From Alphaproteobacteria bacterium (GTDB lineage Bacteria; Pseudomonadota; Alphaproteobacteria; RF32; CAG-239): 64,000 nucleotides of DNA. The stretch spans positions 1,390 to 65,389 of the forward strand of contig JAFVBL010000021.1 in the NCBI GenBank assembly GCA_017479985.1, written 5' to 3'. The notes beneath the pieces are model-generated. The model had not been told where the DNA came from. It worked only from the letters and a program-made list of their open reading frames with translations, and did no database searches. Position numbers and translations under genes: made by a program. Positions 17,261 through 58,658 of the stretch are shown piece after piece; position 1 is the first letter of the stretch, and each line of letters opens with the position of its first letter.

Positions 17261-17815
17261 GTGAAAAAAACTTCTGTAATTAAAGCAGCTATGATGTATG
17301 CTGAAGCAATGTATGACAGTACAATAAAAACGGAAAATGTCGAGACATTGTATGATAATGCGCGTACCCTGAAAGCAGCGATTGAAAGCGGTATGAATGA
17401 ATTAAACAAACTTAATAATCCGCTATGGAAGTATGAAAAAAAAGCACAAATTCTGGAATATCTGGCACAGCAATTACCTTTATGCAAAAATATGCTAAAC
17501 ACACTCAAAATATTAGCAAAAAACAACGAATTAAATATTCTTCCTCAAGTATTGAATCAATTTATCCTGTTGTATCAGGATAAACATTATATTGCCGAAG
17601 TTGAGGTTACAACCGTTATGCCGCTCAACGCCTTACAGGAAGACTTGCTTAAAACAAAATTGGCGGCAATATTTCATAAAGAGATACTTTTACATTACAT
17701 TATCAATCCGCAGATTATCGGCGGTTTGGTTATAAAATACGGTACTAATTTTATTGATAATTCCGTAAAGCACAAACTTGATGCTTTGGAACAGCTTATG
17801 AAAGGGACAAAATAG
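17261..17815 (+). CDS. atpH: F0F1 ATP synthase subunit delta
   Basis: 184 aa immediately upstream of atpA; OSCP-like; GTG start. Confidence 0.8.
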   Translation: MKKTSVIKAAMMYAEAMYDSTIKTENVETLYDNARTLKAAIESGMNELNKLNNPLWKYEKKAQILEYLAQQLPLCKNMLNTLKILAKNNELNILPQVLNQFILLYQDKHYIAEVEVTTVMPLNALQEDLLKTKLAAIFHKEILLHYIINPQIIGGLVIKYGTNFIDNSVKHKLDALEQLMKGTK

Positions 17816-19369: not shown

Positions 19370-20299
19370 ATGGCCGGATTAAAAGAATTACGCACCAGAA
19401 TTGAAGCCATTAAGTCGACGCAAAAAATTACGTCGGCAATGAAAATGGTGGCCGCCTCGCGTTTACGACGCGTGCAAATTCTGGTGGATAAAAACCAAGG
19501 CTATTCGCAAAACCTGCGGCATTCCGCCTTGCGCGTGATGACCGAAATTGAAAACGAAGAAAAAGCAAAAGGCATTAAATATATCCGTCCGCTGATGTTG
19601 CGTACGGCACAAAATCCGCAACATTATAAACTTTGCGTTATCTCGTCCGACCGCGGCTTGTGCGGCGCATATAACAGCAACATTGCAAAAAAAGCAACAC
19701 AGCGAATTCGCGAATTATTACAACAAAACAAAAATATCAGCGTAGAATGTATCGGCAAAAAGGCATACGATACATTAAAACGTACTTTTGCCGGCAGTAA
19801 TATTCGGCTGACCCTTAGCGGCGAAAAACTTAAAACATTGAGCTATACCGAACAGGCAAAGACCGTCGTTATGGATATTTTACGACAATTTCAAGCTAAA
19901 GAATTTGACGTCTGCGAATTTGTGTTTGCCCGTTTTTCTTCTGCCATCAGCAGAACTTTTGTCTGCGAGCAGGTATGCCCGATGGATTTGAATACCGAGC
20001 ATCTTGATGAAGAAGAATTGCAGCTGATTAACCGCTCCGGTCAGGCATTTTATGAATATCTGCCGGATAAACTGACGGTTTTGGAAAATATTTTGCCGAT
20101 TCTGTTTGATGATGACATTTTCAAAATCATCGTCAATTCGGCTGCCTCCGAGCACGGTGCACGTATGACTTCAATGGATAGCGCTACCCGCAATGCAAAA
20201 AATATGATCAGTGATTTGACACTGAAATACAACAGTTTACGACAATCGGCAATCACGACCGAGCTGATAGAAATTATCGCCGGTGCCGAAGCGATTTAA
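19370..20299 (+). CDS. atpG: F0F1 ATP synthase subunit gamma
   Basis: N-terminal MAGLKELRTRIEAIKSTQKITSAMKMVAASRL and C-terminal ITTELIEIIAGAEA. Confidence 0.9.
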   Translation: MAGLKELRTRIEAIKSTQKITSAMKMVAASRLRRVQILVDKNQGYSQNLRHSALRVMTEIENEEKAKGIKYIRPLMLRTAQNPQHYKLCVISSDRGLCGAYNSNIAKKATQRIRELLQQNKNISVECIGKKAYDTLKRTFAGSNIRLTLSGEKLKTLSYTEQAKTVVMDILRQFQAKEFDVCEFVFARFSSAISRTFVCEQVCPMDLNTEHLDEEELQLINRSGQAFYEYLPDKLTVLENILPILFDDDIFKIIVNSAASEHGARMTSMDSATRNAKNMISDLTLKYNSLRQSAITTELIEIIAGAEAI

Positions 20300-20306
20300 G
20301 AGATAG

Positions 20307-21752
<1,446 letters not shown>

Positions 21753-21753
21753 T

Positions 21754-22119
21754 ATGGCTGAGAATATTACACTCAAAATATTCACGCCGGAAAAGACGGC
21801 CATTAACCGCAAGGTATATCGCGTGGTCTTGCCATACGGTACGACAGATTTGACCATTATTGAAGACCGCGCGCCGACTTCACTTATATTACACGACGGC
21901 GCAATGCATATTTTGAATGAAGATAACTCGATTGCCGACACTTATTTTTTGGACGACGGTGTTGTCGACGTGGCGGATAATGTGTGTAAAATCTCGACAC
22001 GTCACATTATTCATCGCTCAAAAATAAGCATTGAGCGTGCGCGTGAGTTATTGACGGAAGAGCCGCAAAACGAGTCGTATTATCAAGCAATTATCGATTA
22101 TCTTGAAAATTTCGAATAA
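21754..22119 (+). CDS. atpC: F0F1 ATP synthase subunit epsilon
   Basis: 121 aa directly after atpD; epsilon fold. Confidence 0.85.
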   Translation: MAENITLKIFTPEKTAINRKVYRVVLPYGTTDLTIIEDRAPTSLILHDGAMHILNEDNSIADTYFLDDGVVDVADNVCKISTRHIIHRSKISIERARELLTEEPQNESYYQAIIDYLENFE

Positions 22120-23860: not shown

Positions 23861-24073
23861 ATGACTGTTATCAATTTTAATGATATTGCTTTAACCGACG
23901 CAGAGCGTCAACCGTGCGAAGTGTGGACCCGCGTGATGGGCTATCATCGTCCGGTTTCTGAATTTAATAAAGGCAAAAAGTCTGAGTATTATTCCCGTAA
24001 ATGTTTTGTTGAAGAAAAGGCTGTGCAGCACTTGGATTCTGATACGGAATCTTGCGCTTGTGCCGCAGAATAA
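23861..24073 (+). CDS. Small protein resembling the C-terminal glycyl-radical region of class III anaerobic ribonucleotide reductase (NrdD); stand-alone or gene remnant
   Basis: 70 aa, MTVINFNDIALTDAERQPCEVWTRVMGYHRPVSEFNKGKKSEYYSRKCF... The RVxGY followed by (W/F)NxGKxxE...R pattern matches, from memory, the NrdD glycyl-radical C-terminus. Strong AAGGAG SD and an AT-rich upstream region. Confidence 0.5.
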   Translation: MTVINFNDIALTDAERQPCEVWTRVMGYHRPVSEFNKGKKSEYYSRKCFVEEKAVQHLDSDTESCACAAE

Positions 24074-24100
24074 TTATTTTGAATATTTCATAGAACTCCA

Positions 24101-24133
24101 AAAACTTCCGATTCGCTTATCGGAAGTTTTTTT
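24101..24133 (+). terminator. Rho-independent terminator after the NrdD-like mini-ORF
   Basis: Stem cttccgat / atcggaag, loop tcgctt, then T8. Confidence 0.55.
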
Positions 24134-24155
24134 TATATCTGCCACATTTCCCCTC

Positions 24156-24184
24156 TTGACAATCATTGTATCAATGCATATACT
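24156..24184 (+). promoter_or_regulatory. Near-consensus sigma70-type promoter (TTGACA, 17 nt, TATACT)
   Basis: TTGACA at 24156-24161, a 17-nt spacer, and TATACT at 24179-24184. Confidence 0.55.
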
Positions 24185-24216
24185 GAAAGTTACGAAAATT
24201 TATTATTTTACATACT

Positions 24217-24471
24217 ATGATTCAGAAAAAAAGTGGATTAGGCTTAGCGCTGAAGTTAATTACGGTCAGCTTAGAAAGCGAATCAGAAAATAACAAGACG
24301 ATTCGCACGGGTGTTATTAAACTGCTTGAAAAGAAAATGCACGAGGTAACGTGTATTGAAGCAGAAGAAGTACCGACACTCCGCAAGCAACTGAATCAAA
24401 TTTCCGCGCATGAGCCTGAGGTCGCAGAAAAAGTGGAGCAACTGATTAAAAAGTTCCACCCTAATCTGTAA
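24217..24471 (+). CDS. Small acidic hypothetical protein (84 aa) forming its own promoter-to-terminator unit; could alternatively be a small RNA
   Basis: ORF MIQKKSGLGLALKLITVSLESESENN...KKFHPNL bounded by the promoter at 24156-24184 and the terminator at 24479-24520. No clear SD at the first ATG. Confidence 0.4.
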   Translation: MIQKKSGLGLALKLITVSLESESENNKTIRTGVIKLLEKKMHEVTCIEAEEVPTLRKQLNQISAHEPEVAEKVEQLIKKFHPNL

Positions 24472-24478
24472 AACGTTC

Positions 24479-24520
24479 GGAGCCTGTTATCCTAATAAGG
24501 ATATTCAGGCTCTTTTTTTT
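24479..24520 (+). terminator. Strong rho-independent terminator
   Basis: Extended hairpin ggagcctg-ttatcctaataaggatatt-caggctc followed by T8. Confidence 0.7.
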
Positions 24521-24527
24521 ATCTTGC

Positions 24528-24555
24528 TTGACATTTTCACCCTTTTCGTTAAACT
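24528..24555 (+). promoter_or_regulatory. Candidate promoter for scoAB (TTGACA, 16-17 nt, TAAACT)
   Basis: TTGACA at 24528-24533; a weak -10; AGGAG SD before the scoA ATG. Confidence 0.35.
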
Positions 24556-24580
24556 GAACAACAGATTTTAAGGAGATTCT

Positions 24581-25243
24581 ATGGTCAAGATGATTACGCC
24601 CGCCGAAGCGGTGCAATTTTTCAAAAGCAATCAAACGATTATGGTCGGCGGTTTTTTAAACTGCGGCGTGCCGAATTTGGTGATTAACGAACTTATCAAA
24701 ACGCCGCTGACCGGTTTTACACTTATTTCAAATGATACAGGTGAAGCCGGCATCAATCGCGGACAATTGATTCACGCCGGCAAAATAAAAAAAGCAATCG
24801 TATCACATATCGGCACAAATCCGGAAACCGTGCAACTCTACAACGAGGACAAAATCGAGATTGATTTGCAGCCGCAGGGCTCGCTTGCCGAGCGTATTCG
24901 GGCTGACGGCGCCGGTTTAGGCGGTATTTTAACGCCGGTCGGAATCGGCACCGATATTGAAAAAGGCAAACAAAAAATTTCCGTCTGCAATAAAGAATAT
25001 TTAATTGAAACTCCTCTCCACGCAGACATTGCCGTTGTTTATGCCACTTATGCCGACCGATTCGGCAATTTGGCATTTCACGGTTCAACTCGCAACTTTA
25101 ACGTTTTAATGCCGATGGCGGCGGATATCGTCATTGTCGAAGCAGAGCATATTCTTGATGAGCCGTTGTCGCCGGACGAGGTTGTGGTGCCGGGAATCTT
25201 TACGGATTATCTGATTGACGGAGGCGCGTATGGAATTGACTAA
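24581..25243 (+). CDS. scoA: 3-oxoacid CoA-transferase subunit A
   Basis: MVGGFLNCGVPNLVINEL..., a typical AtoD/ScoA N-terminus, with a subunit B gene immediately downstream. Confidence 0.85.
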   Translation: MVKMITPAEAVQFFKSNQTIMVGGFLNCGVPNLVINELIKTPLTGFTLISNDTGEAGINRGQLIHAGKIKKAIVSHIGTNPETVQLYNEDKIEIDLQPQGSLAERIRADGAGLGGILTPVGIGTDIEKGKQKISVCNKEYLIETPLHADIAVVYATYADRFGNLAFHGSTRNFNVLMPMAADIVIVEAEHILDEPLSPDEVVVPGIFTDYLIDGGAYGID

Positions 25244-25877
25244 AGAACAAACGCAGGAAATTATTGCACGCCGCGTGGCACAAGAATTCAGCAACGGTGA
25301 TGTCGTTACACTCGGTATCGGTTTGCCGACCAAAGCCGTGCGCTATCTGCCGGACGGCGTCAACATTATCGTGCAGTCCGAAAACGGCGTTTTAGGTGTC
25401 GGTGCCTATCAAAACGACACCAACCGCGATTGCCATATCACCAATGCCGGAGGTGTCGGTGTCACGATAAATCCGGGCGGATGCTGTGTCGACAGCTTGA
25501 TGTCGTTTGCGATGATGCGCGGCGGCCATATTGATGTCACGGTTTTAGGAGCCTTGCAGGTAGATGCCGAAGGTAACCTCGCCAACTGGTGTATTCCGGG
25601 CAAGTTCACACCCGGAATGGGCGGCGCGATGGACTTGGTTGTCGGCACCAAACGGCTGATTATCGCGATGGAACATACGGCCAAAGGCGCACCGAAAATC
25701 CTCAAAAAATGCACTCTGCCGCTGACGGTGGCACATAAGGTCAATATGATTATTACCGAAAAAGCGGTGTTTGACATATCACCGCACGGCTTGGTCTTGC
25801 GCGAAATTATGCCGAATTCTTCGCTCGACGACATCAGCACAACAACGGACGCCGATTTTGAGGTAGATTTGAGGTAA
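25230..25877 (+). CDS. scoB: 3-oxoacid CoA-transferase subunit B
   Basis: VTLGIGLPT and a conserved catalytic Glu region ...SENG.... ATG with GGAGG SD, overlapping the scoA stop by 14 nt. Confidence 0.85.
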   Translation: MELTKEQTQEIIARRVAQEFSNGDVVTLGIGLPTKAVRYLPDGVNIIVQSENGVLGVGAYQNDTNRDCHITNAGGVGVTINPGGCCVDSLMSFAMMRGGHIDVTVLGALQVDAEGNLANWCIPGKFTPGMGGAMDLVVGTKRLIIAMEHTAKGAPKILKKCTLPLTVAHKVNMIITEKAVFDISPHGLVLREIMPNSSLDDISTTTDADFEVDLR

Positions 25878-27921: not shown

Positions 27922-28398
27922 CTACCCCAACGCTGTGCGATAGTGACTGCGCGTAATCGCCATCGCCAGTGCATCAGAAGAGTCGTTGTTTTTCGGCGCA
28001 CAGCCCGGAAGCAGAATCTTGACCATTGTTTCGACCTGCGTTTTTTCGGCACGTCCGACTCCGACCAATGCCTTTTTTACTTTGGTCGGGTCAAATTCAT
28101 AAAGCGGCAGATGATTATGCCCCACCGCCAAAATCACCACCCCGCGCGCCATACTCAATTTAAGAGAAGTTTCCGGATTTTTGTTCAAAAAAGTTTTTTC
28201 GATTGCCGCCTCTTGCGGTTGATAGTTTGCTATAACCTCGTTCAGCGTCGCAAAAATCAGCTCGAGCCTATCCTCTATCGGCATTTTCGGGTCGGTTGGA
28301 ATAAAACCGTCCGCAACGTATTGCAGACGGTTTCCGTTCACTTCTATCACACCCCAGCCGGTCGAGGTCAAACTCGGATCCAAACCCAAGATGCGCAT
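27922..28398 (-). CDS. ruvC: Holliday junction resolvase RuvC
   Basis: MRILGLDPSLTSTGWGVIE... and a C-terminal DSSDALAMAI. Confidence 0.9.
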   Translation of the reverse strand: MRILGLDPSLTSTGWGVIEVNGNRLQYVADGFIPTDPKMPIEDRLELIFATLNEVIANYQPQEAAIEKTFLNKNPETSLKLSMARGVVILAVGHNHLPLYEFDPTKVKKALVGVGRAEKTQVETMVKILLPGCAPKNNDSSDALAMAITRSHYRTALG

Positions 28399-28401
28399 AT
28401 T

Positions 28402-29160
28402 CTATTCTTCTCCGGCAAGCTCAGCCATCACATCGCCGGCAATTTCAGCATTATGATAAACGTGTTGTACGTCTTCATCATCTTCAAGCGCATCAATAAA
28501 GTCCAAAAACTTGCGCGCGGTTTCAGCGTCGGTAATATCCACCTTAACCATCGGTTTCCAATCCAATCGTGATGCCGACGGCGTGCCGTATTTTGCTTCC
28601 AAAGCAGAAGTTACGGCTGACAAATCGTCCGGCAAAGTTTCAATTTCGTGATTCTCATCATCGGTAACAACCTCGTTGGCACCGGCTTCCAAAGCAGCTT
28701 CAAACATTTCATCTCCGCTCGCCACGCTTACCGGATATTGAATATAGCCGATGCGTTCAAAGTTGAACAGCACTGAACCGCTCTCACCCATTTGACCGCC
28801 GCGCTTACCGAAAATCGTGCGCACATTACCGGCCGTGCGATTTTTGTTATCAGTTAAGGCTTCAACAATAACCGAAACCTTATTCGGCGAAAAACCCTCG
28901 TAGCGCATTGAAACGAAATCGGCGCCGCCGGCAACGGTTGTTGCCTTGGCTATTGCGCGTTCAATGTTATCTTTCGGCATACTTTCGGCACGTGCCGCCT
29001 GAATTGCCAAACGCAAGCGCGGATTCTTATCCGGCTCCGGCAAACCGCTCTTGGCCGCCACGGTAATTTCGCGCGCTAATTTGGCAAACACGCGTGCTTT
29101 TTTGGCGTCCTGCGCGCCTTTACGATACATAATATTCTTAAATTGCGAATGTCCTGACAT
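28402..29160 (-). CDS. yebC: YebC/PmpR family DNA-binding transcriptional regulator
   Basis: MSGHSQFKNIMYRKGAQDAKKA... diagnostic N-terminus; classic yebC-ruvC linkage. Confidence 0.9.
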   Translation of the reverse strand: MSGHSQFKNIMYRKGAQDAKKARVFAKLAREITVAAKSGLPEPDKNPRLRLAIQAARAESMPKDNIERAIAKATTVAGGADFVSMRYEGFSPNKVSVIVEALTDNKNRTAGNVRTIFGKRGGQMGESGSVLFNFERIGYIQYPVSVASGDEMFEAALEAGANEVVTDDENHEIETLPDDLSAVTSALEAKYGTPSASRLDWKPMVKVDITDAETARKFLDFIDALEDDEDVQHVYHNAEIAGDVMAELAGEE

Positions 29161-29310
29161 TTTTATCTCCTGAATTTAATCGTCATTTATGCGCTTTTAT
29201 AACTTATTTATCATTATTTTTTCAAGTTTTTTTTGCAAAAAAATCACATTTTTATAAAGCAAAACGACTCGCATCATAAAATACGAGCCGTTTTCACACT
29301 GCAAATACGC

Positions 29311-31839
29311 TTAATTCAAGTGTTCAATCCGCTTTTGCCCCTCGATGAAAATGCCGTGTTCGTTGGCGGAAACATACGCTGTGCCGCCATCTGTGATTAC
29401 CCCGTCAAGCAACATCATTGAGAGCGGATTTTCGAGTTCGCGTACAATCAGCCGCTTTAACGGACGCGCACCAAACTCCGGATTATAGCCGTTTTCAGCA
29501 AACCAATCCCGTGCCCGTTCATCAAGTTTAATCGTGATATGACGTTCACTCAAGCGCTCTTGCAACCGCCCGATTTGAATCGCCAAAATCTGCCGAATAT
29601 CATCTTTTTTCAAAGAATTAAAGATCACAATTTCATCTAATCTGTTTAAAAACTCAGGTTTAAAGAACGCACGCAACGTCGACATCACATCTTGCCGCGC
29701 ATCGGTAATCAAATTAGATGTCAAAATGATGAATGTGTTTTTGAAATCAACCGTGCGCCCCTTACCGTCGGTCAAATGTCCTTCATCAAGCACTTGCAGC
29801 AACAGATTAAATACGTCCGGATGTGCCTTTTCCACCTCGTCAAACAAAATCACCTGATACGGACGCCGCCGCACTGCCTCTGTCAACACGCCGCCTTCGT
29901 CATAGCCGACATACCCCGGAGGTGCACCGATAAGCCGTGCCACCGAGTGCTTTTCCATATATTCCGACATATCAATGCGAATATATGCCCCTTCTTCATC
30001 AAACAAAAACTCCGCCAATGCTTTGGCCAATTCGGTTTTTCCGACACCGGTCGGACCTAAAAACAAAAATGAACCAATCGGACGATTCGGGTCTTTTAAG
30101 CCCGCACGTGAACGCCGCACCGCATTTGCCACCGCCGACAGCGCCGTATCCTGTCCGACCACACGCAACGCCAAATTTTTTTCGAGATTCAACAATTTTT
30201 CACGTTCGCTGCCGACCAGTTTTTCCACCGGAATCCCCGTCCATTTGGAAACGACCGACGCCACCATATCCGGCGTTACGGTTTCAACATCGCTCTTGGT
30301 ATTGTTTTGCATTTGCAACGTTTTCAATCGTTTTTCCATTTCCGGAATTTCTTTATATTGCAACTCACCGGCTTTTTCAAACTCTCCGCTTCTGAGTGCC
30401 TGCTCCATACGGATTCGCGCCGCATCGATTTTTTCGCGCAATGTATTCGCTTCATTCATCGAGCTTTTTTGCATATTCCATTTTTCGGTTTGCTCAGCCG
30501 ATTTCTTTTCAAGTTCGGCAATTTCCTCCTCCAATTTTTGCAAACGCTCAATCGACGCAAAATCTTTTTCTTTACGCAAAGCTTCCCGCTCTATTTTAAG
30601 CTGAATCAGCTTACGGTCGACTTCATCAAGTTCTTCCGGTTTGGAATCCAGTGCCATTTTGAGCTTGCTCGCCGCCTCATCAATCAAATCAATCGCTTTA
30701 TCCGGCAAGAATCTGTCGGTAATATAGCGATTAGACATTGTCGCCGCTGCCACCAATGACGCATCGGAAATTCTGACTCCGTGATGCAATTCATATTTTT
30801 CCTTAATGCCGCGCAGAATTGAAATCGTATCTTCCACATCTGTTTCACCGACATACACCGGCTGAAAACGCCGCGCAAACGCCGCATCTTTTTCAATATA
30901 CTTTTGATATTCTTTCAAAGTTGTTGCACCGATACAATGCAATTCACCGCGTGCCAATGCCGGTTTAAGCAGATTTGAGGCATCCATTGACCCCTCTGAC
31001 GCACCGGCACCGACCACCGTATGCATTTCATCAATAAACAAAATAACCTGACCGTTCGCCGCCTGAATTTCTTGCAATACGCCTTTTAAGCGTTCTTCAA
31101 ACTCACCGCGAAATTTTGCGCCGGCAATCAATGCCCCCATATCAAGTGCCATCAATCGCTTATGCTTTAAAGCATCAGGAACATCACCGTTAATAATTCT
31201 CTGAGCCAATCCTTCAACAATTGCGGTTTTACCGACCCCTGGTTCACCAATCAGAATCGGATTGTTTTTGGTGCGCCGCGACAACACCTGAATAGTGCGC
31301 CGAATTTCCTCATCACGCCCGATAATCGGATCGATTTTGCCCTGTGCCGCCCGTTCGGTATAATCCACCGCAAACTTTTTCAGCGCCTGAAAATTATCTT
31401 CGGCTGTTGCGGAATCTGCCGTGCGTCCTTGCCGCATTCTGTTAATTGCTTCATTGAGCCGTTGCGGATTAACACCGTAATTTTTCTGCATCAATGCTGC
31501 TTGCAACAAACGTTCGACACTCACATATGCATCTTTTGATTTTTTTGCCATATCTTCCGCCGTACCGAGCAGACGCATAAAATCCTGCGATAAATTAAGT
31601 TGCAGATTTTCGCCGTCAACCACCGGTTGCTTTGCCAACTCTTCTTCAACACGCGCCCGCACCGCATTGATATCTGCGCCGGCTTGCGATAACAGATTTG
31701 CCGCCATACCCTCATCATCTTCAAGCATAACTTTAAGTAAATGCACCGGTGTCAAATACGGATTATTACGTTTTGCCGCCAAGGTTTCGGCCTCTTGCAA
31801 ATAACCCTGACTTCTGTCTGTATAATTCTTCAAATTCAT
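29311..31839 (-). CDS. clpB: ATP-dependent chaperone ClpB
   Basis: Two AAA+ modules ([30 protein letters not shown]) with a long middle coiled-coil. ATG ([11 protein letters not shown]) with AAGGAG 10 nt upstream chosen over 31899. Confidence 0.95.
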
Positions 31840-31921
31840 CGTTTTCACACTCCTTATAAAAATTATATAGGGAGCAATTTTTTCAAATGCAATCCGCAAG
31901 CACTTTTTTCAAAATTAAAAT

Positions 31922-34603
31922 TTATGCATATTGTTTTGTTTTTGAAGCAAATGTTTGTTTTTTCTTTATTTTCAGATTTTTAAACTTTGTCGGTACAACT
32001 TTCTTTTCTGCCGCATCAGATTTTTGCTCCACCATACGACGCGCCTTATCCATTTCTTCGCGCACCCCCGAATTATCATCAGCCTGCGGTGCCGACATAA
32101 TAACTTCTTTGGTAAAACCGCCGGAAAGTGACGATGTTTGCTCAGAATGTTCCATTTCTCTCGCCTGTGTTTCGCGTAAAGACATCACAATTTCCTTGGC
32201 CTTATTTTGCAACAAATCAACAGCCTGAGTTAAAAACAGAGAAACTTTGCCGGACGAAATATGCGGCAATGTTGCCAACGGCTGTGTATATTTCGTATTT
32301 ACATTCAAAATTCCCTGTTGTGTCGGAGTCGGTTCTGCTTTTTCGATGTTTAATTTTCGTTTGAGCGCCGCTTGCAAACGGAAAAACTTTCCGGCAAAAT
32401 CGCAATATTCACGCGGTGTTGATGCTTGTTCCATCTGTTTTTTCAAATTGGCGGCAGCCGTGCTTTCCATACTTGTATCAACAGGAATTTTATCTATTTC
32501 CCCTTCGACACGCTGTTGTGTTTGATTCAGCATATACGTATCGTATGCCTGACGATATTCTATTTTTTGCGCCTGTAATTTAACATTTTTCGACAATTCT
32601 GCCGGCTCAAAAACATAACTGTTTAAATCCGCCATCACCGTTATACCGTCTTTAGGCATAATAATCCCCATTACCGCGCGGTCAAAATACCCTTCGACTT
32701 TTCGCCCGTGTGTAATCATTCTGTCCCGATGGATATATTTGGTTCGACACGCCATATCTTTACCGAGATGCAGACGCCCCTTTTCATCCATAGCGTTTTC
32801 ATTGATATGCAACAGCTCATGCACATCTTTATTGATATATAAGATATCTTCATTTATCTTTGTAAAACTCTTTCCGGTCATACGCTCATAATACGAGATA
32901 TTGCTGAGAGGGAAAATATGATGCGCATTACAATCCTTATGCGACTTACCGTGTTGCATATATTCAATGGCGGCATCTTTTTCTTTTTGTGCTCTGTTTC
33001 TGATTGATTCGGCTATTTCCTGATTTGTTTTATGCTGTTTATGACCTTCAAGGGTCAGCGGCAAAGTATATTTCTTCTTAAAATAAGCAAACATTGTCTG
33101 TCGCAGCTCTTTTTCGTGTTTTGCTACCAGATTTTTGAGATATTTCTCTTTGTCCGATGCAATTTCCACACCGTTTTTATTGGCCATTGACTTATAATTT
33201 GTAATTTTGCGCCGATTGATTAAAAACGTAAGATCTTCATATTTCAGATTTGCAACCTCCTGCGGCGGAATTGACATCGCTTTCATTTGTGCAAGCAATG
33301 CCGTTTCCAAAGCCTGAAATTGCGGAATCTGTTTGCATATATTCCAAATTTTATTTTTTTTCAAATTCTTTTCATATTCTTCCGGTGTATAATCCGCCTT
33401 CAGAAAAGCATCTAACTGTTGTTGCTTTTCTTCACTCAGCCCCTGCCGTCCGACTAAATCGCGCATTTTCAAAACATCTCTGACTGCCGCAGAAAGTTGT
33501 TTTTCAGTCGGTTCCAAAATCATGCCGCTCCACGCCGCCCGCATTACTCTGGATTTTGTTTGATCAATTTCGCGCAATTCCAATGCCGTACGCTGAGTTT
33601 CATCTATTGTTGCAATCAACTTCTCTTTGGAAGGGTTTTCCATAAAATCTTTCAGCAATGCCGACATTTTTTGCGTCTCGCTCGGATTAAACTCCTCCAT
33701 ATTTTTACACAAATTAAGAAAAACAGGCAATTTTGTATTATAAAATTCCGGCGGTGTTTGCTCTTGTTGTAAATCCTTTTTCATAAAATAAAGATTATCA
33801 ACAAATTCCGCTTCGTACGGAGGTTCCTGACACCACACCATCCGCATTCCCAATCCGTCCAACGTATTGCTTACAACTTGTTGATTTCGCTCAAAATCGC
33901 CCGCATTGTCTGCTGTAATATTGGTCAGTGTCTCTATTTGCTTTTTCAATGTGTTACGATGTGCACGTGCTTTTTCTGCAGTCGATTGAAAGCTGTACAC
34001 GTGCTTATTTTCAGTCTTTTCTGCCAGATAATACTGCATTTTACGCAGCGCCCCAAACGAAACCTGATCAAATTTTTTGAAACGCTCGCGCTCTTGAAAA
34101 CTTGCATCATCATAAGTTTGTTGCCGTTCGTTATTCTGTAAGAAAGCATCGATTCTTTCAATAAAAGATTGCAATTTTGCCTGCGTTTTTTCATCAATAT
34201 CGCATTCTTTCGGATTTAAAATATCACCGGTCTTCGAATCTTTGGTATCAAACTCTATAAAATCAGCATTTACGACATAATTCTCACCGATATGCGGGAA
34301 TTCCTGACGCAAAAAATTCGGAAATTCCGCCGCCACATCTTGTCTTAATTGTACAATTTCCTGATTGTCCGGCTGTTTATTCTGCCATTTAAGCAATTCA
34401 CGATACACGGAGTTTAAAATATAGCAATAAGACACCTCCCTTGCAACCGGCTCTTCCGAATAATATGCCCCGTCACCGTTCTGCATATTGTTTTCGGCAG
34501 CACTTAAAACCTCGGCATATTTTTGCAACATCGGTGTATTCGCAAGCGCTTCTCCGATTTGCGGCGGCTTTTCTACAAACACATATCGATCATCTATTGC
34601 CAT
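31922..34603 (-). CDS. Large (893 aa) cytoplasmic hypothetical protein with a possible HNH-like His-rich motif
   Basis: No signal peptide; charged and partly coiled. Segment NAHHIFPLSN...NKDVHELLH resembles an HNH (HH...N...H..H) core; this is a weak by-eye call. Lies between the DEAD-like gene and clpB on the same strand. Confidence 0.6.
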   Translation of the reverse strand: MAIDDRYVFVEKPPQIGEALANTPMLQKYAEVLSAAENNMQNGDGAYYSEEPVAREVSYCYILNSVYRELLKWQNKQPDNQEIVQLRQDVAAEFPNFLRQEFPHIGENYVVNADFIEFDTKDSKTGDILNPKECDIDEKTQAKLQSFIERIDAFLQNNERQQTYDDASFQERERFKKFDQVSFGALRKMQYYLAEKTENKHVYSFQSTAEKARAHRNTLKKQIETLTNITADNAGDFERNQQVVSNTLDGLGMRMVWCQEPPYEAEFVDNLYFMKKDLQQEQTPPEFYNTKLPVFLNLCKNMEEFNPSETQKMSALLKDFMENPSKEKLIATIDETQRTALELREIDQTKSRVMRAAWSGMILEPTEKQLSAAVRDVLKMRDLVGRQGLSEEKQQQLDAFLKADYTPEEYEKNLKKNKIWNICKQIPQFQALETALLAQMKAMSIPPQEVANLKYEDLTFLINRRKITNYKSMANKNGVEIASDKEKYLKNLVAKHEKELRQTMFAYFKKKYTLPLTLEGHKQHKTNQEIAESIRNRAQKEKDAAIEYMQHGKSHKDCNAHHIFPLSNISYYERMTGKSFTKINEDILYINKDVHELLHINENAMDEKGRLHLGKDMACRTKYIHRDRMITHGRKVEGYFDRAVMGIIMPKDGITVMADLNSYVFEPAELSKNVKLQAQKIEYRQAYDTYMLNQTQQRVEGEIDKIPVDTSMESTAAANLKKQMEQASTPREYCDFAGKFFRLQAALKRKLNIEKAEPTPTQQGILNVNTKYTQPLATLPHISSGKVSLFLTQAVDLLQNKAKEIVMSLRETQAREMEHSEQTSSLSGGFTKEVIMSAPQADDNSGVREEMDKARRMVEQKSDAAEKKVVPTKFKNLKIKKKQTFASKTKQYA

Positions 34604-34683
34604 ATTTTACCATCCTTTATTATACAACAGTATAACAAAACATTTTCCGATTGTCCAGTATTTTTTGTCGATTTTTTACAAAT

Positions 34684-34718
34684 AACTCGTCTTCCTGTAA
34701 ATTGCAAGAAGACGAGTT
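34684..34718 (-). terminator. Perfect 11-bp stem-loop downstream of the DEAD-like gene (candidate terminator or attenuator)
   Basis: aactcgtcttc-ctgtaaattgcaa-gaagacgagtt; downstream U-tract on the minus strand is weak (auuugu). Confidence 0.3.
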
Positions 34719-34744
34719 GTTAATGTGAATAAGCGACAGTTGTT

Positions 34745-35680
34745 TCAGTCACCTTCCGCCAATTCAACCGCCGTCAGCAAAAACGCCGGTGTATTACGAC
34801 CGAATGTATGATATTTTTTAACCAGATTCAACGCTTCGGCATCTTTACTGCTTTCACGCCGCGATAATGTACGTTTTGCATCATTTTGCAGCGATTTTGC
34901 CTGTTTATTCGCCTTACCTTTTTCCTCTTTTACCATCGAAGACTGCAAATGTTCTTGCTGAACCGAACTTTGCGCTTTTTCATCCGACAATACTGCTTTC
35001 TCCGCCAAATCGGCATTCTTTTCGGCATTTGATACATTTCCATTGCCGACATTGTCTTCACGCACAACTTCTTCCTCGTTTTTATTGATTTTTATTTCTT
35101 CCGGTGTTTGCAAGATTTTATCCAAGATTGACTGCGTTTCTTTTGACCGACGGTTGGTAAAGACAATATTCTGCTTATCCGCCGGCAAAACCGCCAAAAT
35201 CTTTTCCAATTTTTCCAACTGATGCGTCTTTTTAATCAGGTTAATATCGTCCACCACCAAAATATCAATCTGTGATAAATCAATTTTATCTTCATCAAGC
35301 AAGTCCGAAAGCAAATTCGGTGAGGCAATAATCACATTAGCCTCCTGTTCAAAGCTCTCTTCGGATTCCGCAACATCTTCTGCCGAAATTTCGTGATATT
35401 TGTTAAATACGGCGAATCTGTCCGAAACAGCAACAGAAGCCTGAGAACCTGACGTAATAATCAAAATATTGCGTGCTTTTTTCTGCGCCATAATTTCAAT
35501 CAGCGGAAACACATAAGCACACGTTTTACCGCATTTAATCGGTGCAATCGTAAACACATCTTTGCCTGCCAATACGGCCGGAATGACATCGGCCTGCACC
35601 GTTGTCGGTTCTTTTATGCCGGCCTCCTCGATTGCTTGAATTGTCTTATCACTTAAACCCAAATCTCTGAAATTCATCAT
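34745..35680 (-). CDS. Truncated or degenerate DEAD-box helicase-like protein (RecA-like domain 1 only) with a K/E-rich low-complexity tail
   Basis: Q-motif region GIKEPTTVQ. Motif I degenerate (APIKCGKT instead of AxTGSGKT). Ib-like ASPNLL. Motif II VDDI instead of DEAD. Motif III FTN instead of SAT. No helicase domain 2. Starts 6 nt after the ftsH stop. Confidence 0.65.
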   Translation of the reverse strand: MMNFRDLGLSDKTIQAIEEAGIKEPTTVQADVIPAVLAGKDVFTIAPIKCGKTCAYVFPLIEIMAQKKARNILIITSGSQASVAVSDRFAVFNKYHEISAEDVAESEESFEQEANVIIASPNLLSDLLDEDKIDLSQIDILVVDDINLIKKTHQLEKLEKILAVLPADKQNIVFTNRRSKETQSILDKILQTPEEIKINKNEEEVVREDNVGNGNVSNAEKNADLAEKAVLSDEKAQSSVQQEHLQSSMVKEEKGKANKQAKSLQNDAKRTLSRRESSKDAEALNLVKKYHTFGRNTPAFLLTAVELAEGD

Positions 35681-35686
35681 TTTCCC

Positions 35687-37552
35687 CTATACTTCCGGTA
35701 ATGAAACTTTGGTTTGCTTTTCCGGCGGAACCGGCATATATTCGGCACGATTAAGCGGTTTTCCGGCAACAACATCTCTTATTTCATCGCCGGTCAACGT
35801 TTCATATTCCATCAATGCCTGAGCCAAAGCCTCAAGTTCATTATCATATTGTTGTAAAATATCTGTAGCTTGTTTATGAGCTTCGGTTAACAACCGCTTT
35901 ATTTCAGCATCAACCAACCGAGCTGTTTCTTCACTCATATTTTTGTTTTGTGTCACGGCGCGTCCCAAAAACACCTCATTGGAGTTTTCGGCATACAACA
36001 CCGGTCCCAAAACATCGCTCATTCCCCATTCGGTCACCATTGAACGCGCCAAATTCGTTGCTGACAGAATATCACCCGATGCCCCTGATGTTACTTTATC
36101 ATAACCAAACTTCAGCTCTTCACTGGCACGACCGCCCATACAAATCGTCAACCGCGACAACATTTTTGCCCGCGTATACGAATACTGGTCTTTTTCCGGC
36201 AGTTGCTGCACCATACCGAGAGCCCGACCGCGCGGAATAATCGTCGCCTTATGAATCGGATCCGTTTCCGGCACATGTAACGAACATATTGCGTGTCCGG
36301 CCTCGTGATATGCCGTCAGTTTTTTTTCTTCTTCGTCCATTGCCATAGATTTACGTTCATTCCCCATCAAAACCTTATCTTTGGCATTATCAAAATCCGC
36401 AGCCGTAACTTTACGTTTATTGCGCCGCGCAGCCAGCAATGCCGCTTCGTTCACCAAATTAGCCAAATCCGCACCGGAAAACCCTGGTGTTCCGCGCGCC
36501 ACAACTTTCAAATTAACATCTTTGGCCAACGGCACTTTACGCACATGCACTTTCAAAATATCTTCACGCCCTTTTACATCGGGATTATTGACCACCACCT
36601 GACGGTCAAAACGCCCCGGACGCAACAGTGCCGGATCCAACACATCGGGGCGATTGGTTGCCGCAATCAAAATCACATTTTCGTTTGGCTCAAAACCATC
36701 CATTTCAACAAGCAATTGGTTTAAGGTTTGCTCGCGCTCATCATTTCCGCCGCCCAAACCGGCACCGCGATGACGACCGACCGCATCAATTTCATCAATA
36801 AATAGAATACACGGCGAATTTTTCTTTGCCTGCTCAAACATATCGCGTACTCTTGAAGCACCGACTCCGACAAACATTTCCACAAAATCCGACCCCGAAA
36901 TCGAGAAAAACGGTACATCTGCCTCACCGGCCACCGCTTTAGCCAACAAAGTTTTACCCGTCCCCGGAGGGCCGACAAGCAACACACCCTTCGGAATTTT
37001 ACCGCCCAAACGCTGAAACTTCATCGGTTCTTTCAAAAAATCAATAATTTCTTCCAATTCCTGTTTGGATTCATCTGCACCGGCAACATCTTGAAATGTC
37101 ACCTTTTTATTATTTTCAATCAGTCGTGCACGTGATTTTCCGAAACTCAGAGCCTTATTATTGCCGGCATTTGCCTGCCGCATAAAGAAAATCCACACAC
37201 CGACCAACAAAATCATCGGAAACCACGAAATAATGATGCTCCACAGCGTTTCACCCGATGTATCCTGAGGTTTGGCATCGATTTTGACGCCGTTTTCCAA
37301 AAGTGTGTCCACCGTGGTCGGACTATACGGCGCATAAGTCACAAATTTTTTACCGTCCGTTGTCTGACCGGAAATTTCACCACCGCTGATAGAAACATTT
37401 GACACGCGTTTTTCTTTAACGTTATTCATAAACTCAGAAAAGGCTACATCTTCGGCGCCGGCACGCAGTGTCCGATTTTCCGACATTCCGAAAAATGCCG
37501 TCAGCACCAACAAAATAATCACCCAAATCAGAGCATTTTTACCGAATTTCAT
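35687..37552 (-). CDS. ftsH: ATP-dependent zinc metalloprotease FtsH
   Basis: N-terminal TM segment, AAA+ GPPGTGKT, second region of homology, and HEAGH zinc motif. Confidence 0.95.
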
Positions 37553-37940
37553 TTATTTTTCCCATTATCTAAATACTATATTTAAGTAGTCACGATTAAC
37601 GGTATATTAAGGGGTAATTTTTTAAAATACAAGTGTTTTTGCCGACTTTTAGACTGCCTTTTTTATCTTTGCGCACTCAGAATCTTTTTTGAACGGACAA
37701 CTCAATCAACGATTTATGATAACCGCGCTGCCATATATTCGAATCTTTATCCGTATATATAAGTTAATGCCGGCACAAAACCACCGAATTCCAACTTGCG
37801 GTTAGACAGCGACACGGCATAGCGTTGTGTAACATCGCGTTCTTTTTTTTGTGTAAACTCATAATTTTCAACCTTATCTCTGTCGTTGAATTTAAGATTA
37901 TATTTATCAGTAATTGCAAAATTTAACCATAACAAAATAT

Positions 37941-38680: not shown

Positions 38681-39583
38681 TCAATTCAAAAACAAACGAA
38701 TTTGCCCCAAAAGTCCCGAATGTGCCAATAAAAATTCGGAACACTGTGAAATATGCCTGTTTTTAAAAGCCTGCTCTTTCAGGTATTTCTGATTCTCTTT
38801 ATCCGAGCAATGCGTCCATAAATCTTCCCAATCAACTTTGTCCGGATACTCGGTCAAAAATTTGGGATGGAAACTGTGATTTTTGACAAACACATCGAAT
38901 TGCTGATGTTCCAACAATATATTGTAACGTCTGGAATTGTAGAGTTCATCAATCAGCCCTTTTTGCAGACAATATTCTTCAATTTCCGCACGCGGCAGAA
39001 GTCCGCAGAAACTTCCTCGCTCCAACACCCAATCAGCCAGTCCCTGATCAATCAGATATTTCCAACCGTCTTGATGTTGCACAATATCAAAATACCATTT
39101 TTTGGCCAAACAAAAAGGTGCATATTTTGCAAAATCCACCTTAAGCAATGAGGGATACAGCTCCATTTCTTCGGCAATCTGCGGGGCATTTTGCGCAATC
39201 AAATCAAACCGTTTGCGGTTTTTCAGAACTTGCCACAGCTCAAACCGCACACAATCTTCATCGCTCGGCCAATCCGACGGCAAACCGTCTTGAAATTCCG
39301 GCAGAATAGCCGCCAAATCGGCATCTTCAAAATAGCCTTGAATCCATCTGGGCACATCATCAGAGTCATACACCTCAGCCAGAAGCAACACCTCTTTGAT
39401 AACCGCATCGCTGTAGCCGAAGAACACCATACTTGTCAGCATAAACGCACTGAGCGGCATACCGTCGCGCAAAAGCTGCTTTAATCGCCCGATTTCGGAA
39501 TTTTCGATACAGAACCACGCAATCATATCGTTCTGGTTATCCGAATTGAGTGCGATAATACCTTTAAAATCTTTCATAAGCAA
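38681..39583 (-). CDS. Hypothetical protein (300 aa), Trp/acidic-rich
   Basis: Long ORF, no recognisable domain. Confidence 0.5.
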   Translation of the reverse strand: MLMKDFKGIIALNSDNQNDMIAWFCIENSEIGRLKQLLRDGMPLSAFMLTSMVFFGYSDAVIKEVLLLAEVYDSDDVPRWIQGYFEDADLAAILPEFQDGLPSDWPSDEDCVRFELWQVLKNRKRFDLIAQNAPQIAEEMELYPSLLKVDFAKYAPFCLAKKWYFDIVQHQDGWKYLIDQGLADWVLERGSFCGLLPRAEIEEYCLQKGLIDELYNSRRYNILLEHQQFDVFVKNHSFHPKFLTEYPDKVDWEDLWTHCSDKENQKYLKEQAFKNRHISQCSEFLLAHSGLLGQIRLFLN

Positions 39584-40858: not shown

Positions 40859-42235
40859 ATGGCTACAAATGATTCAAAGTCATTTTTTGACTTACCTGTG
40901 ACAACACAACTTTTCTATTTGATTGGATTTCTGTGGACAGTGCAGTTACTTCTGATTTTCAACCCTCTCACGCTTTTCGTGCTGAATATCTTCAAGCCCC
41001 GCTGGGCAAGGAACGTGGCACATTGGAATGAGCTTTACGGAGAGAGTTGGCAGAAGTTCTTTGAGCGACAGGCCAAGAAATGGCCGTGGCACTGGGCAAA
41101 ATGGTGGCACACCTGCGAGGAGATAGGCTGTATGGCTGAAGAGAAGCAGTTGGATTACTACTACAATGTCAGTCACTCAATCAAAACTCTCAACGTGATG
41201 TCTATCAGTACTTCCGCAAAGGTTATAGGCAAAGATTTTGAAGGGTTCAAAGGGTATATGGCAACTGTCAACACTCTAAATGCGATGTCTGTTGCCATTT
41301 CCGCTAAGGATGCATATATCAACATAAGCTGCAATCTTTTTTGCGCCTTTATCCGTGCAAGCATTGAAAAAGACGATATGTCAGCTCTGGGGGATTACCT
41401 CAAGCGCGGAACGCTTCCGAAAGATCAGGTTATGATTTTATCGGAGTATGCTAGACAAAGTACTACGGGCGTTTACCGCAACACTTGGTTAGCGTTGGTT
41501 TTCTACGACTACGTTGAGCGTTGCGGTCTCGGCAAGGATTTACTCAAAAACATCTTAGAGCGTCCAAGTTCTGCCAAATTCAAGGAAGAAGTTGAGAAGC
41601 GTCAGAACATCTACAGTCAGCGTGTGTTTACCAAATCACAGCGCGGCACTAAGCAGACCGATGCATGGCTGCATTTCTGCGGAAAGACCGAGGAAATCTG
41701 CCCACAGGCGCAGATGGAAATGGGACTTGACCAGTATCATGTCTTTCACAAGACCGGCCACACGCTTGATGCCGAGGCAATCCTACACATCTTGAGCCAC
41801 AATTCTGACCGGACAATGGCGCAGTTGATTTTCAAGTATGAGCCGAACTTCGGAATCGCCAATGATGAGGTCAAGGAGTTGATTGATAAGAAGCCGGAGC
41901 TGAAGAGTATCTTCAATGACGCCAATATCGCTTTGATTGAGAAGGATCTGGAACAGCGTATTTGTAACCGTGAAGAGTTGACCGAAGAGCAGATAAACAA
42001 AATGTTTGACTGTCCGAATGCCGGTCAGTTGGTCATTGATTACATCGGTTTTTATCCGTTGCCGCAGAAGTTCCACAAGCGTATGTTGGAATTGGAAACT
42101 GCCGACGGGGTTCTCGGGTACTACCTTATGCAGAGTTGGTTCTCTGAAGATTACAAGCTTGATGCAGACGTTCTTGAAGAATGCAAAAAGCGTGGCCTTC
42201 GTCTTGAACCGGATCCCAAATGGGACGACGATTAA
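40859..42235 (+). CDS. Hypothetical protein (458 aa) with an N-terminal hydrophobic segment; noticeably higher GC than its neighbours
   Basis: N-terminal LFYLIGFLWTVQLLLIFNPLTLFVLNIF and a W-rich WPWHWAKWWH segment. Codon usage is C/G-rich (ctc, cag, ggc) relative to flanking genes; this is a by-eye estimate. Confidence 0.55.
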   Translation: MATNDSKSFFDLPVTTQLFYLIGFLWTVQLLLIFNPLTLFVLNIFKPRWARNVAHWNELYGESWQKFFERQAKKWPWHWAKWWHTCEEIGCMAEEKQLDYYYNVSHSIKTLNVMSISTSAKVIGKDFEGFKGYMATVNTLNAMSVAISAKDAYINISCNLFCAFIRASIEKDDMSALGDYLKRGTLPKDQVMILSEYARQSTTGVYRNTWLALVFYDYVERCGLGKDLLKNILERPSSAKFKEEVEKRQNIYSQRVFTKSQRGTKQTDAWLHFCGKTEEICPQAQMEMGLDQYHVFHKTGHTLDAEAILHILSHNSDRTMAQLIFKYEPNFGIANDEVKELIDKKPELKSIFNDANIALIEKDLEQRICNREELTEEQINKMFDCPNAGQLVIDYIGFYPLPQKFHKRMLELETADGVLGYYLMQSWFSEDYKLDADVLEECKKRGLRLEPDPKWDDD

Positions 42236-58454: not shown

Positions 58455-58658
58455 TTTCGTACTCCTTACAGCTTTACTATTTTTGTCAGTATAACGCACT
58501 TTTTTTCAAAATACAAGCAAAAAATGACAAAATTTTGATATTTTTTTGTTAATATTGTCAAATTATAATGTATTCGGTCAATAATCAGTTTTTTTGCTAT
58601 ACTTTCCTATTTTATATGATATAACAGTTTTAGTTTAAGAGAGGTTAACGGAACACAA

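Follow-up and report, generated by a model that had tools for sequence, protein, structure and literature searches.

What does it mean when two AAA+ quality-control machines are encoded at either end of a single row of genes? The question is raised by a locus in the 64,000-nucleotide (nt) stretch analyzed here, hereafter the window, which comes from contig JAFVBL010000021.1 of assembly GCA_017479985.1, an uncultured alphaproteobacterium of the RF32 lineage. On its minus strand the genes for FtsH and ClpB are joined by those for a short DEAD-box-like protein of 311 amino acids (aa), which we call DEADs, and for an 893-aa protein, which we call X. The original prediction, made from the letters of the sequence, saw in these four genes a possible lineage-specific stress-response or effector module. 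Comparison with relatives leads us to a different reading, which we consider probable: the block is made up of two gene pairs, each conserved on its own, whose juxtaposition is specific to the lineage; it has at least three transcription units and is not one module. One pair would be ftsH and a tightly coupled pseudo-helicase gene, with yebC-ruvC behind it. The other would be X and clpB, with an older site after the atp operon and an NrdD-like gene and before CoA-transferase genes; in the clade of the window, X and clpB would have moved jointly, with their own promoters and the clpB terminator, into the gap between DEADs and yebC.

Gene order and transcription signals

The four genes have the strand and spacing first described. 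They are ftsH (621 aa, 35687-37552), DEADs (34745-35680), X (31922-34603), and clpB (842 aa, 29311-31839), all on the minus strand and separated by gaps of 6, 141, and 82 nt; the range originally singled out, 31840-37552, ends at the clpB start, so that clpB itself lies outside it. The outer genes were also named correctly, as both products exceed curated equivalog cut-offs: FtsH scores 870 bits against TIGR01241 (cut-off 600) and carries Pfam FtsH_ext, AAA, AAA_lid_3, and Peptidase_M41, and ClpB scores 1278 bits against TIGR03346 (cut-off 1232). Assignment of the latter as the ClpV of a type VI secretion system was ruled out, because the ClpV model TIGR03345 reaches 815 against its own cut-off of 885, whereas the ClpB model is above cut-off. 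The open reading frame (ORF) called mechanically for clpB (29311-31899) begins at a TTG at 31899; homologues and the position of the promoter favor the ATG at 31839. Downstream lie yebC (28402-29160) and ruvC (27922-28398), identified by Pfam and synteny, which occupy 27922-29160 on the same strand. Co-directional genes with short gaps are common in bacteria. The block is indeed co-directional, but the claim that it is unusual does not hold, as only the synteny within each pair exceeds chance.

All of the relatives available for comparison are rumen or gut metagenome-assembled genomes (MAGs). DEADs follows ftsH in all loci checked, with a gap of 6-20 nt. Loci L010-L015 have the order ftsH-DEADs-yebC-ruvC, without X or clpB, and in three distant lineages, whose DEADs proteins are 57-64% identical to that of the window, DEADs lies 10-20 nt past ftsH and is followed by yebC and ruvC. 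The arrangement of ftsH and DEADs, then yebC-ruvC, is the standard ftsH neighborhood in gut and rumen alphaproteobacterial MAGs.

Nine GTDB species genomes and additional metagenome contigs contain X; clpB is adjacent in all of them, in at least four flanking contexts. In the first context (L008/L022), atpD-atpC are followed by a 70-aa NrdD-like gene (nrdD70), X, and clpB; the second (L004, L019-L021) has the NrdD-like gene, X, and clpB between other flanks. In the third (L001-3, L007, L018, L023, L024), clpB is inverted and divergent and is followed by the NrdD-like gene, X, a 121-aa gene, and gpsA, with the inverted clpB still within 0.7-2 kb of X. The fourth (the window, L005/6, L016, L017) is ftsH, DEADs, X, clpB, yebC, and ruvC. 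This four-gene order is restricted to one sub-clade, and two metagenome samples each hold a contig of the third context together with a separate ftsH-DEADs-yebC-ruvC contig. Each middle gene is syntenic with its own partner, but co-occurrence of the two middle genes in one block does not extend beyond that sub-clade. In two of these loci an outer or neighboring gene is broken: clpB of L007 (3681-6078) is split into three ORFs, with X intact beside it, and ftsH of L005 (5066-6950) is split into two; either could be an assembly or frameshift error or real pseudogenization.

Linkage to clpB extends to more distant relatives of X, which we place in an intermediate clade of its family (described below). 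P0141 (ca. 22% identity) has atpHAGDC, the NrdD-like gene, the X-like gene, clpB, and a CoA-transferase gene, and P0137 has the X-like gene, clpB, and a CoA-transferase gene; in P0139 the X-like gene is between yebC-ruvC and exbBD, and in P0152 it is beside adk-secY. Thus, clpB is directly downstream in two of the four sampled intermediate members (ca. 22-25% identity to X). In more than 11 loci, including L001-L004, L007-L009, L018-L024, and L061, the gene nrdD70 immediately precedes X, and the order atpDC-nrdD70-X-clpB-CoA-transferase is carried by L008, L061, and L025. On its plus strand the window has atpHAGDC (17261-22119), a glycosyltransferase gene, nrdD70, an 84-aa gene (orf84), and CoA-transferase genes, which is the first context minus X and clpB. 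The apparent ancestral X-clpB site is therefore still present at 23861-25877 (plus), where it comprises nrdD70 (23861-24073), orf84 (24217-24471), and CoA-transferase A/B (24581-25877). On these gene orders, the simplest reading is that X-clpB left the ancestral site and was inserted, inverted, between DEADs and yebC, for which two nested inversions would suffice.

Three features of these sites are recorded in their own right. At least two lineages have been rearranged in the intergenic region between DEADs and yebC, which received X-clpB in the clade of the window and, in L059, an X-like gene divergent to yebC. At the ancestral site, orf84 fills the place that X-clpB has in other lineages; its counterpart in L017 (17456-17701) is 83% identical, and its promoter, GACAATC-N16-TATACTG, is similar to the X promoter's proximal part. 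We considered orf84 as a remnant of X or clpB and rejected this, as it has no similarity to either. The nrdD70 product (79-93% identity between loci) has a single match, to the very C-terminal end of the anaerobic ribonucleotide reductase NrdD (Pfam positions 530-562 of 562). It contains TRVMGY, which resembles a glycyl-radical site, and could be a glycyl-radical protein of a "spare-part" kind that stands alone.

Signals in the gaps would divide the block further. A terminator-like hairpin follows DEADs (34684-34718, minus), with a 14-bp stem and then UAUUUGU; its minimum free energy is -20.2 kcal/mol (z = -5.2), and none of 200 shuffles was as stable. Next comes a promoter-like element for X (34629-34671, minus), TCGACAAAA-N5-TGGACA-N17-(TG)TTATACT, that is, N17-TGTTATACT, which matched the scan at 10 of 12 positions with an extended -10 and occurs only once in the window. 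Conservation of this upstream element extends to all long and intermediate members of the X family, in five genomic contexts, and in every such locus the element is preceded by the hairpin and T-run of the preceding gene, be that the NrdD-like gene, DEADs, yebC, or another. The 82-nt gap between X and clpB contains an RpoH (sigma-32)-like clpB promoter (31864-31893, minus; ATTGCA-N17-CTATAT), ca. 20 nt from the X stop codon, which is conserved in 14 distinct loci with or without X upstream. This element resembles the rhizobial RpoH motif cTTGaa-N16-CgATaT (PMC4167512); the sigma factor is one that we infer, because the sigma-70 and RpoH consensuses overlap, as noted in a study of S. meliloti (PMC3616915). 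Thus, clpB would be driven by its own heat-shock-type promoter, and read-through from X is possible, as the 82-nt gap has no evident terminator. A further terminator-like hairpin, identified by folding, follows clpB (29259-29295, minus), and an element upstream of yebC, TTTTTGCAAAAAAAACTTGAAAAA (29217-29241, minus), is kept in all contexts, being found also in L010-L017 and L059. Upstream of ftsH is a promoter-like element (37603-37633, minus; CTTG-N16/18-CCCTTAATATA) whose RpoH-like features are kept in relatives; with its C-rich -10, it is no more than suggestive of an RpoH-type promoter and is less clear than that of clpB. Because the hairpin and the conserved promoter elements lie in the gaps, at least three transcription units are predicted, namely ftsH-DEADs, X, and clpB, an outcome of the kind named beforehand as refuting a single module. 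The ftsH-DEADs sub-pair alone looks like a single operon; the four-gene block does not.

Two other features of these promoters deserve mention. All clpB loci share a conserved palindrome, CTCCCTATA-N7-TATAAGGAG (31850-31874, minus), that covers the clpB -10 and Shine-Dalgarno sequence. Its CUCC would pair with the GGAG of the clpB ribosome-binding site in transcripts reading through from X, whereas a transcript from the clpB promoter would lack the CUCC; the palindrome may shield the translation of clpB from such read-through or serve as a thermosensor. The promoters of the X family carry repeated T(T/G/A)GACA hexamers, which in the long and intermediate clades take the form TTGACAAAA-N4-6-TRGACA (L059, L061, L062, L025), and the short-clade genes of L041 and L048 (ca. 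5640-5700) have three TAGAC(A/T) copies around the -10. With a variable spacing of 12-14 nt, the hexamers may represent tandem promoters or the operator of a common regulator; they matched no known regulator motif.

A half-helicase behind ftsH

DEADs was originally described as a degenerate DEAD-box domain 1, and this description stands: Pfam DEAD is its only match (residues 26-175, 61 bits), GKT is kept, the DEAD and SAT motifs are lost, and Helicase_C is absent. In this protein, a RecA-like domain 1 spans residues 26-175 (nt 35156-35605), and a charged, variable linker separates it from a C-terminal peptide that is invariant, DAEALxLVKKYHTFGRNTPAFLL (nt 34748-34843); the linker and a 30-residue motif make up the 136 residues beyond residue 175. 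Motifs were assigned by colinearity with the Pfam and NCBIfam matches, together with the consensus. The Q motif is kept, motif I is APxxCGKT, motif II is VVDDIN in place of DEAD, and motif III is TNR in place of SAT; motifs Ia (PTRELA) and Ib (TPGR) and the GG loop are degenerate, and those of domain 2 are absent. The NCBIfam models RhlE2, CshA, and RhlE match residues 2-205 in part (E = 1e-25 to 1e-28), with best scores of 94-98 bits against cut-offs of 646-925. Compared with the DEAD-box helicases RhlE, CshA, and CsdA (PF00270 + PF00271), the first 200 residues of DEADs are colinear with domain 1, including the Q motif and the GKT P-loop. It differs from them in having no Helicase_C, in its degenerate motifs Ia, GG, Ib, II, and III, in its unique invariant C-terminal peptide, and in its fixed site after ftsH. 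DEAD-box helicases are defined by a DEAD domain together with Helicase_C and ten conserved motifs (PMC3093544); because domain 2 is absent and the motifs are degenerate, DEADs falls outside that definition.

The protein is by no means peculiar to the window. Its family has ca. 1000 database matches, the best 120 of which are all 267-320 aa long, 58-100% identical, and possess PF00270; Helicase_C (PF00271) is absent from the window protein and from all of these best 120. In an alignment of 20 sequences at 57-80% identity, mean column identity is 67%, 113 columns are invariant, and the N-terminal 200 residues are nearly invariant. This conservation points to strong purifying selection, and its strength rules out a pseudogene or decaying fragment. 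A query of a large protein database with the C-terminal peptide returned one fragment and nothing else. For one family member, P0053 (280 aa), precomputed annotation adds PF27928, a family absent from the Pfam copy that we scanned, which may already describe the C-terminal region.

A Shine-Dalgarno sequence lies directly behind the ftsH stop codon in every locus, and no other signal precedes DEADs, which in the window starts 6-9 nt past that stop. Because of this arrangement, it is reasonable to infer that DEADs is co-expressed with ftsH. We hypothesize that its product is a nucleotide-binding, non-unwinding partner or regulator that would be expressed with FtsH. FtsH is known to associate with modulators such as HflK/HflC and YccA. 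The analogy to DEADs would extend only to a co-expressed small modulator, as DEADs has no sequence relationship to these proteins and no membrane segments. Our literature searches returned no description of an ftsH-linked half-helicase or of a clpB-linked HNH protein.

X and its family

X is listed by NCBI as hypothetical protein IJ770_03110 of "Alphaproteobacteria bacterium." It matches no known family in Pfam or NCBIfam, and the alternative that it is a conserved housekeeping protein was not borne out. Its description as a large, charged, cytoplasmic protein agrees with its composition (29% charged residues) and with a maximum 19-residue hydropathy of 0.92, compared with 2.43 for FtsH, which leaves no transmembrane segment; no signal peptide and no known N-terminal or trafficking domain was found in it. 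The C-terminal 80 residues are basic and disordered, and such tails end all members of the family. Twelve homologues with 38-67% identity were found among 5.8 billion proteins, and a family profile search returned 48 representatives among 1.84 billion. These fall into a long clade, which includes X, an intermediate clade (600-900 aa), which has an N-terminal "MAxxxRY" region in common with the long clade, and a short clade (ca. 400-600 aa). Members are 14-25% identical overall, and their shared core reads RxxFxGxxxxP ... W..C.Q.P.F ... IPP ... D, then G...HH ... N ... H-x3-H; in X, the core corresponds to residues 340-700 (nt 32504-33586). X evolves fastest in the block, with 38-67% identity where ClpB has 82-95% and YebC 90-99.6%; between L017 and the window the values are 59.5, 95, and 99.6%, respectively. 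Both middle genes, X and DEADs, are restricted to the lineage, as originally supposed.

Several searches delimit the family. NCBIfam and PADLOC scans of 45 members, which served as a control for the recurring Pfam matches described below, gave unrelated singletons only. Searches of phage and plasmid collections with X (tblastn), and of viral contigs with the short-clade alignment, found no match; a mobile-element origin of X is unsupported because no phage, plasmid, or viral-contig copies were found. Thus, X appears to be the long form of an undescribed protein family that is missing from Pfam, NCBIfam, and PADLOC and, as judged by Foldseek, from the Protein Data Bank (PDB). The best match of the family profile to PDB sequences was a non-significant one (E = 0.085) between X residues ca. 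185-200 and helix B of KCNQ1. The invariant LRKMQYYLAEK at these residues (window ca. 34000-34050, minus) resembles the calmodulin-binding helix B VIRRMQYFVAKK, probably by chance.

The HNH-like motif that had been suspected in X is real. It lies at residues 555-603 (32795-32941, minus) and reads NAHHIFP...INEDILYINKDVHELLHINEN. H561, H562, N584, H595, and H599 are invariant in the 12 homologues, as are D557, N559, N591, E602, and N603. The four histidines are also invariant in sub-alignments of 25 and 28 sequences, and across 45 family members their conservation is at least 90%, as is that of the nearly invariant N584. AlphaFold2 models were obtained for full-length X (from 12 sequences; predicted local distance difference test, pLDDT, 81; predicted template-modeling score, pTM, 0.71) and for the core (residues 340-700, from 25 sequences; pLDDT 90, pTM 0.83), the motif having a pLDDT of 80-98 in the core model. 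DSSP assigns strands at 558-562 and 587-591, with a helical hairpin inserted between them, and a helix at 592-598; the HH dyad is on the first strand, and H595 and H599 (H-x3-H) are on the following helix. The motif is thus predicted to adopt the beta-beta-alpha topology of a His-Me finger. In the AHH, LHH, and WHH toxins of the HNH fold, an HH (or DH) dyad closes strand 1, with the first His as metal ligand and the second as general base, two metal-binding His are on the helix, and the cysteines are lost (PMC3113570).

Curated profiles give weak but coherent support to the placement of X among HNH-type proteins. Among the 45 family members, sub-threshold Pfam matches occur twice each for AHH, HNH_2, and Col-Pyo_DNase (best E = 0.0044, 0.0058, and 0.017, respectively), all below the gathering scores; the AHH match in P0148 and the HNH_2 match in P0144, the two whose coordinates were examined, fall on the family motif. 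Foldseek comparison of the full-length and core models with the PDB gave no significant match, and the top hit of the core against BFVD, a putative HNH endonuclease (E = 0.87), is not evidence; a profile restricted to the HNH region had no match among PDB sequences. Because Foldseek gave no significant match in the PDB or BFVD, the helical scaffold is new as far as this could be tested. We propose that the core of X is a new helical scaffold that would hold a His-Me-finger site of the AHH/colicin-DNase type, with HH on a strand, an Asn, and an H-x3-H helix. As judged from these residues, X is most likely a metal-dependent nuclease, and its target is probably DNA.

Two groups of nucleases provide the closest comparisons. 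X shares with the AHH/LHH/WHH toxins (PMC3113570; AHH PF14412) the HH dyad on a strand, two helix His, and the loss of the treble-clef cysteines, and its short paralogues share a following SUKH-type gene; weak Pfam AHH matches also fall on the family motif. It differs in that the motif scores below the AHH gathering score and is embedded in a helical core of ca. 350 residues without a structural match, rather than in a swappable C-terminal cassette; X has ca. 290 residues after the motif and has neither an immunity gene nor a trafficking domain. The DNases of colicins E7 and E9 and the S pyocins (PF21431) have the same HH...N...H-x3-H layout without zinc-binding cysteines, and two X-family members give weak Col-Pyo_DNase matches. 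In outline X is also, as colicins are, a large, elongated, helical protein with a nuclease module, and its motif spacing probably resembles that of colicin E9. Unlike these DNases, X lacks a following immunity gene, a lysis gene, and a plasmid or phage setting, and it has no significant sequence or Foldseek similarity to them.

The short clade differs from X in its neighborhood. A metagenome scan with a five-sequence short-clade alignment yielded 33 loci, none of which has clpB near the short-clade gene. In every locus with enough downstream sequence, a homologous gene of 137-152 aa starts at or overlaps the short-clade stop codon; its product matches SMI1_KNR4/SUKH-1 in 6 of 11 sampled members, and others match SUKH_5 or SUKH_6. 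SUKH proteins are immunity partners of HNH-fold toxins (PMC3113570). By its gene content, the short clade is a toxin-immunity-like cassette, in which the SUKH protein would neutralize the nuclease, and X is unlike that. The downstream neighbor of X is clpB, at 82 nt, and not an immunity gene; no SUKH homologue was found in the window or the X loci. In the window, as in most long-clade loci, X has no immunity-like gene behind it, and the intermediate forms likewise have no SUKH-type gene. Comparison of the X family with SUKH-like small proteins by hhalign gave no sign of an immunity domain fused to X. Across the family the HNH module stays constant, and in X it is internal, not C-terminal. X persists without an immunity gene, and therefore its activity would be restrained or specialized. 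For the long forms, which have no immunity gene, the likeliest reading is that they are intracellular nucleases, restrained or specialized, with a conserved promoter of their own; the restraint may come from the clade-specific N-terminal domain and the C-terminal helices.

In two human-gut short-clade loci, L041 (7791-8714) and L026 (7082-7540), the HNH-like and SUKH-like pair is followed by a gene for a Zeta-toxin/AAA_33-like kinase (E = 5e-10), which suggests a small island of conflict genes.

Weighing the explanations

Could the four genes still be one co-transcribed, lineage-specific stress or effector operon that joins two AAA+ machines? Such an operon would explain their common direction and short gaps, the RpoH-like motifs upstream of both ftsH and clpB, the retention of the arrangement in close relatives (L005, L006, L016, L017), and the lack of an obvious terminator between X and clpB. 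We nonetheless regard it as very unlikely, and the module originally proposed is not upheld: the order exists in one sub-clade only, elsewhere the pairs occupy separate loci (in two samples, separate contigs), a strong hairpin and a conserved promoter lie between DEADs and X, and clpB has a conserved promoter of its own. Within the second pair, X and ClpB might be functional partners, with ClpB remodeling, activating, or restraining the nuclease, or X acting in heat or proteotoxic stress, and with selection keeping the genes linked. The adjacency is seen in every long-clade locus and in two of four intermediate loci, down to ca. 22% identity; it has lasted through at least four flanking contexts, including those in which clpB is inverted within 0.7-2 kb, the two genes were relocated together in the clade of the window, and the X stop is ca. 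20 nt from the clpB promoter. Shared ancestry of these related loci explains much of this, however, and the intermediate-clade L059 and L062 and all 33 short-clade loci are away from clpB; the X promoter is sigma-70-like, not RpoH-like, and we know of no mechanism that links ClpB to HNH nucleases. We keep functional coupling as a minority reading, unlikely on balance, because the pair survives several rearrangements yet separates in two intermediate-clade lineages. For the most part, we take the X-clpB adjacency to be mainly inherited synteny, without a proven partnership.

The nature of X admits a further alternative, that it is an exported antibacterial DNase of the polymorphic-toxin or bacteriocin kind whose immunity gene is elsewhere or unrecognizable and whose adjacency to clpB is incidental. 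Its short paralogues do have the classic toxin and SUKH-immunity architecture, it evolves fast with its catalytic residues intact, basic disordered tails are present in all members, and the family is narrowly and patchily distributed. This reading is unlikely in our view, given that X has no signal peptide, transmembrane segment, or recognizable trafficking domain, that no immunity-like gene follows it in the window or in most long-clade loci, that the window contains no SUKH homologue and X no SUKH-like part, that the HNH module is constant instead of swapped and is not C-terminal in X, and that the neighborhood has no secretion-system genes and the collections searched no phage or plasmid copies. 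We lean distinctly toward an intracellular role over an exported toxin. It could also be argued that neither middle gene is meaningfully active, DEADs being a decaying helicase remnant and the X motif non-catalytic or a product of chance, as the DEAD motifs are degenerate, domain 2 is missing, no HNH model reaches threshold, and X has no structural match. We give this hardly any credence: the DEADs family is full-length, with 113 invariant columns in 20 sequences, an invariant C-terminal peptide, and a fixed position after ftsH, and the four X histidines are invariant at 14-25% overall identity and sit on a confidently predicted strand-strand-helix.

Several points weigh against the juxtaposition of two pairs and the roles that we assign to their members. 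The loci come from related MAGs, so that synteny counts are phylogenetically non-independent, and some contigs are possibly misassembled. X stays beside clpB after rearrangements that change orientation (L001, L007, L023, L024), which could mean selection for linkage. The catalytic residues of X are intact with no adjacent immunity gene, which is hard to square with an unrestrained nuclease and leaves the mechanism incomplete. None of the 45 X-family members attains the Pfam gathering score for any HNH family, and X itself is unmatched. The role proposed for DEADs derives entirely from gene order and conservation, and the promoters and terminators were read from consensus and conservation.

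A bolder combination goes beyond the juxtaposition of two conserved pairs. X would found a His-Me-finger superfamily on an unseen helical scaffold, its long forms being domesticated relatives of SUKH-neutralized toxins that work with ClpB (e.g., as stress-triggered nucleases that ClpB restrains or activates), and DEADs, as a pseudo-enzyme adaptor, would link the sensing of nucleotides to proteolysis by FtsH. We consider this combination improbable; if true, both AAA+ quality-control machines of an uncultured gut lineage would have a dedicated, lineage-specific accessory protein.

Two smaller novelties are real, namely an HNH-type family, so far undescribed, that has toxin-like as well as immunity-less forms, and a half-helicase that is conserved and linked to ftsH. 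Neither touches a long-standing open question, and their functions are deduced. The X family offers a natural comparison between toxin-immunity forms (short, with SUKH) and immunity-less forms, which is relevant to the way in which toxin nucleases come to be tolerated or domesticated. A whole group of abundant, uncultured gut and rumen alphaproteobacteria shares, in conserved form, the half-helicase coupled to ftsH, a candidate FtsH accessory factor. For genome scans, the locus is a caution that a tidy co-directional block can be a recent juxtaposition, which promoters in the gaps and comparative synteny expose.

Elsewhere in the window, a 1161-aa ORF (55014-58499, minus) has no Pfam match at E <= 0.001, and ORFs at 38681-39583 (300 aa) and 40859-42235 (458 aa) have none at E <= 0.01. 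The window otherwise reads as ordinary chromosome of an uncultured alphaproteobacterium, with hflX, ftsZ, the atp operon, CoA-transferase genes, yebC, and ruvC.

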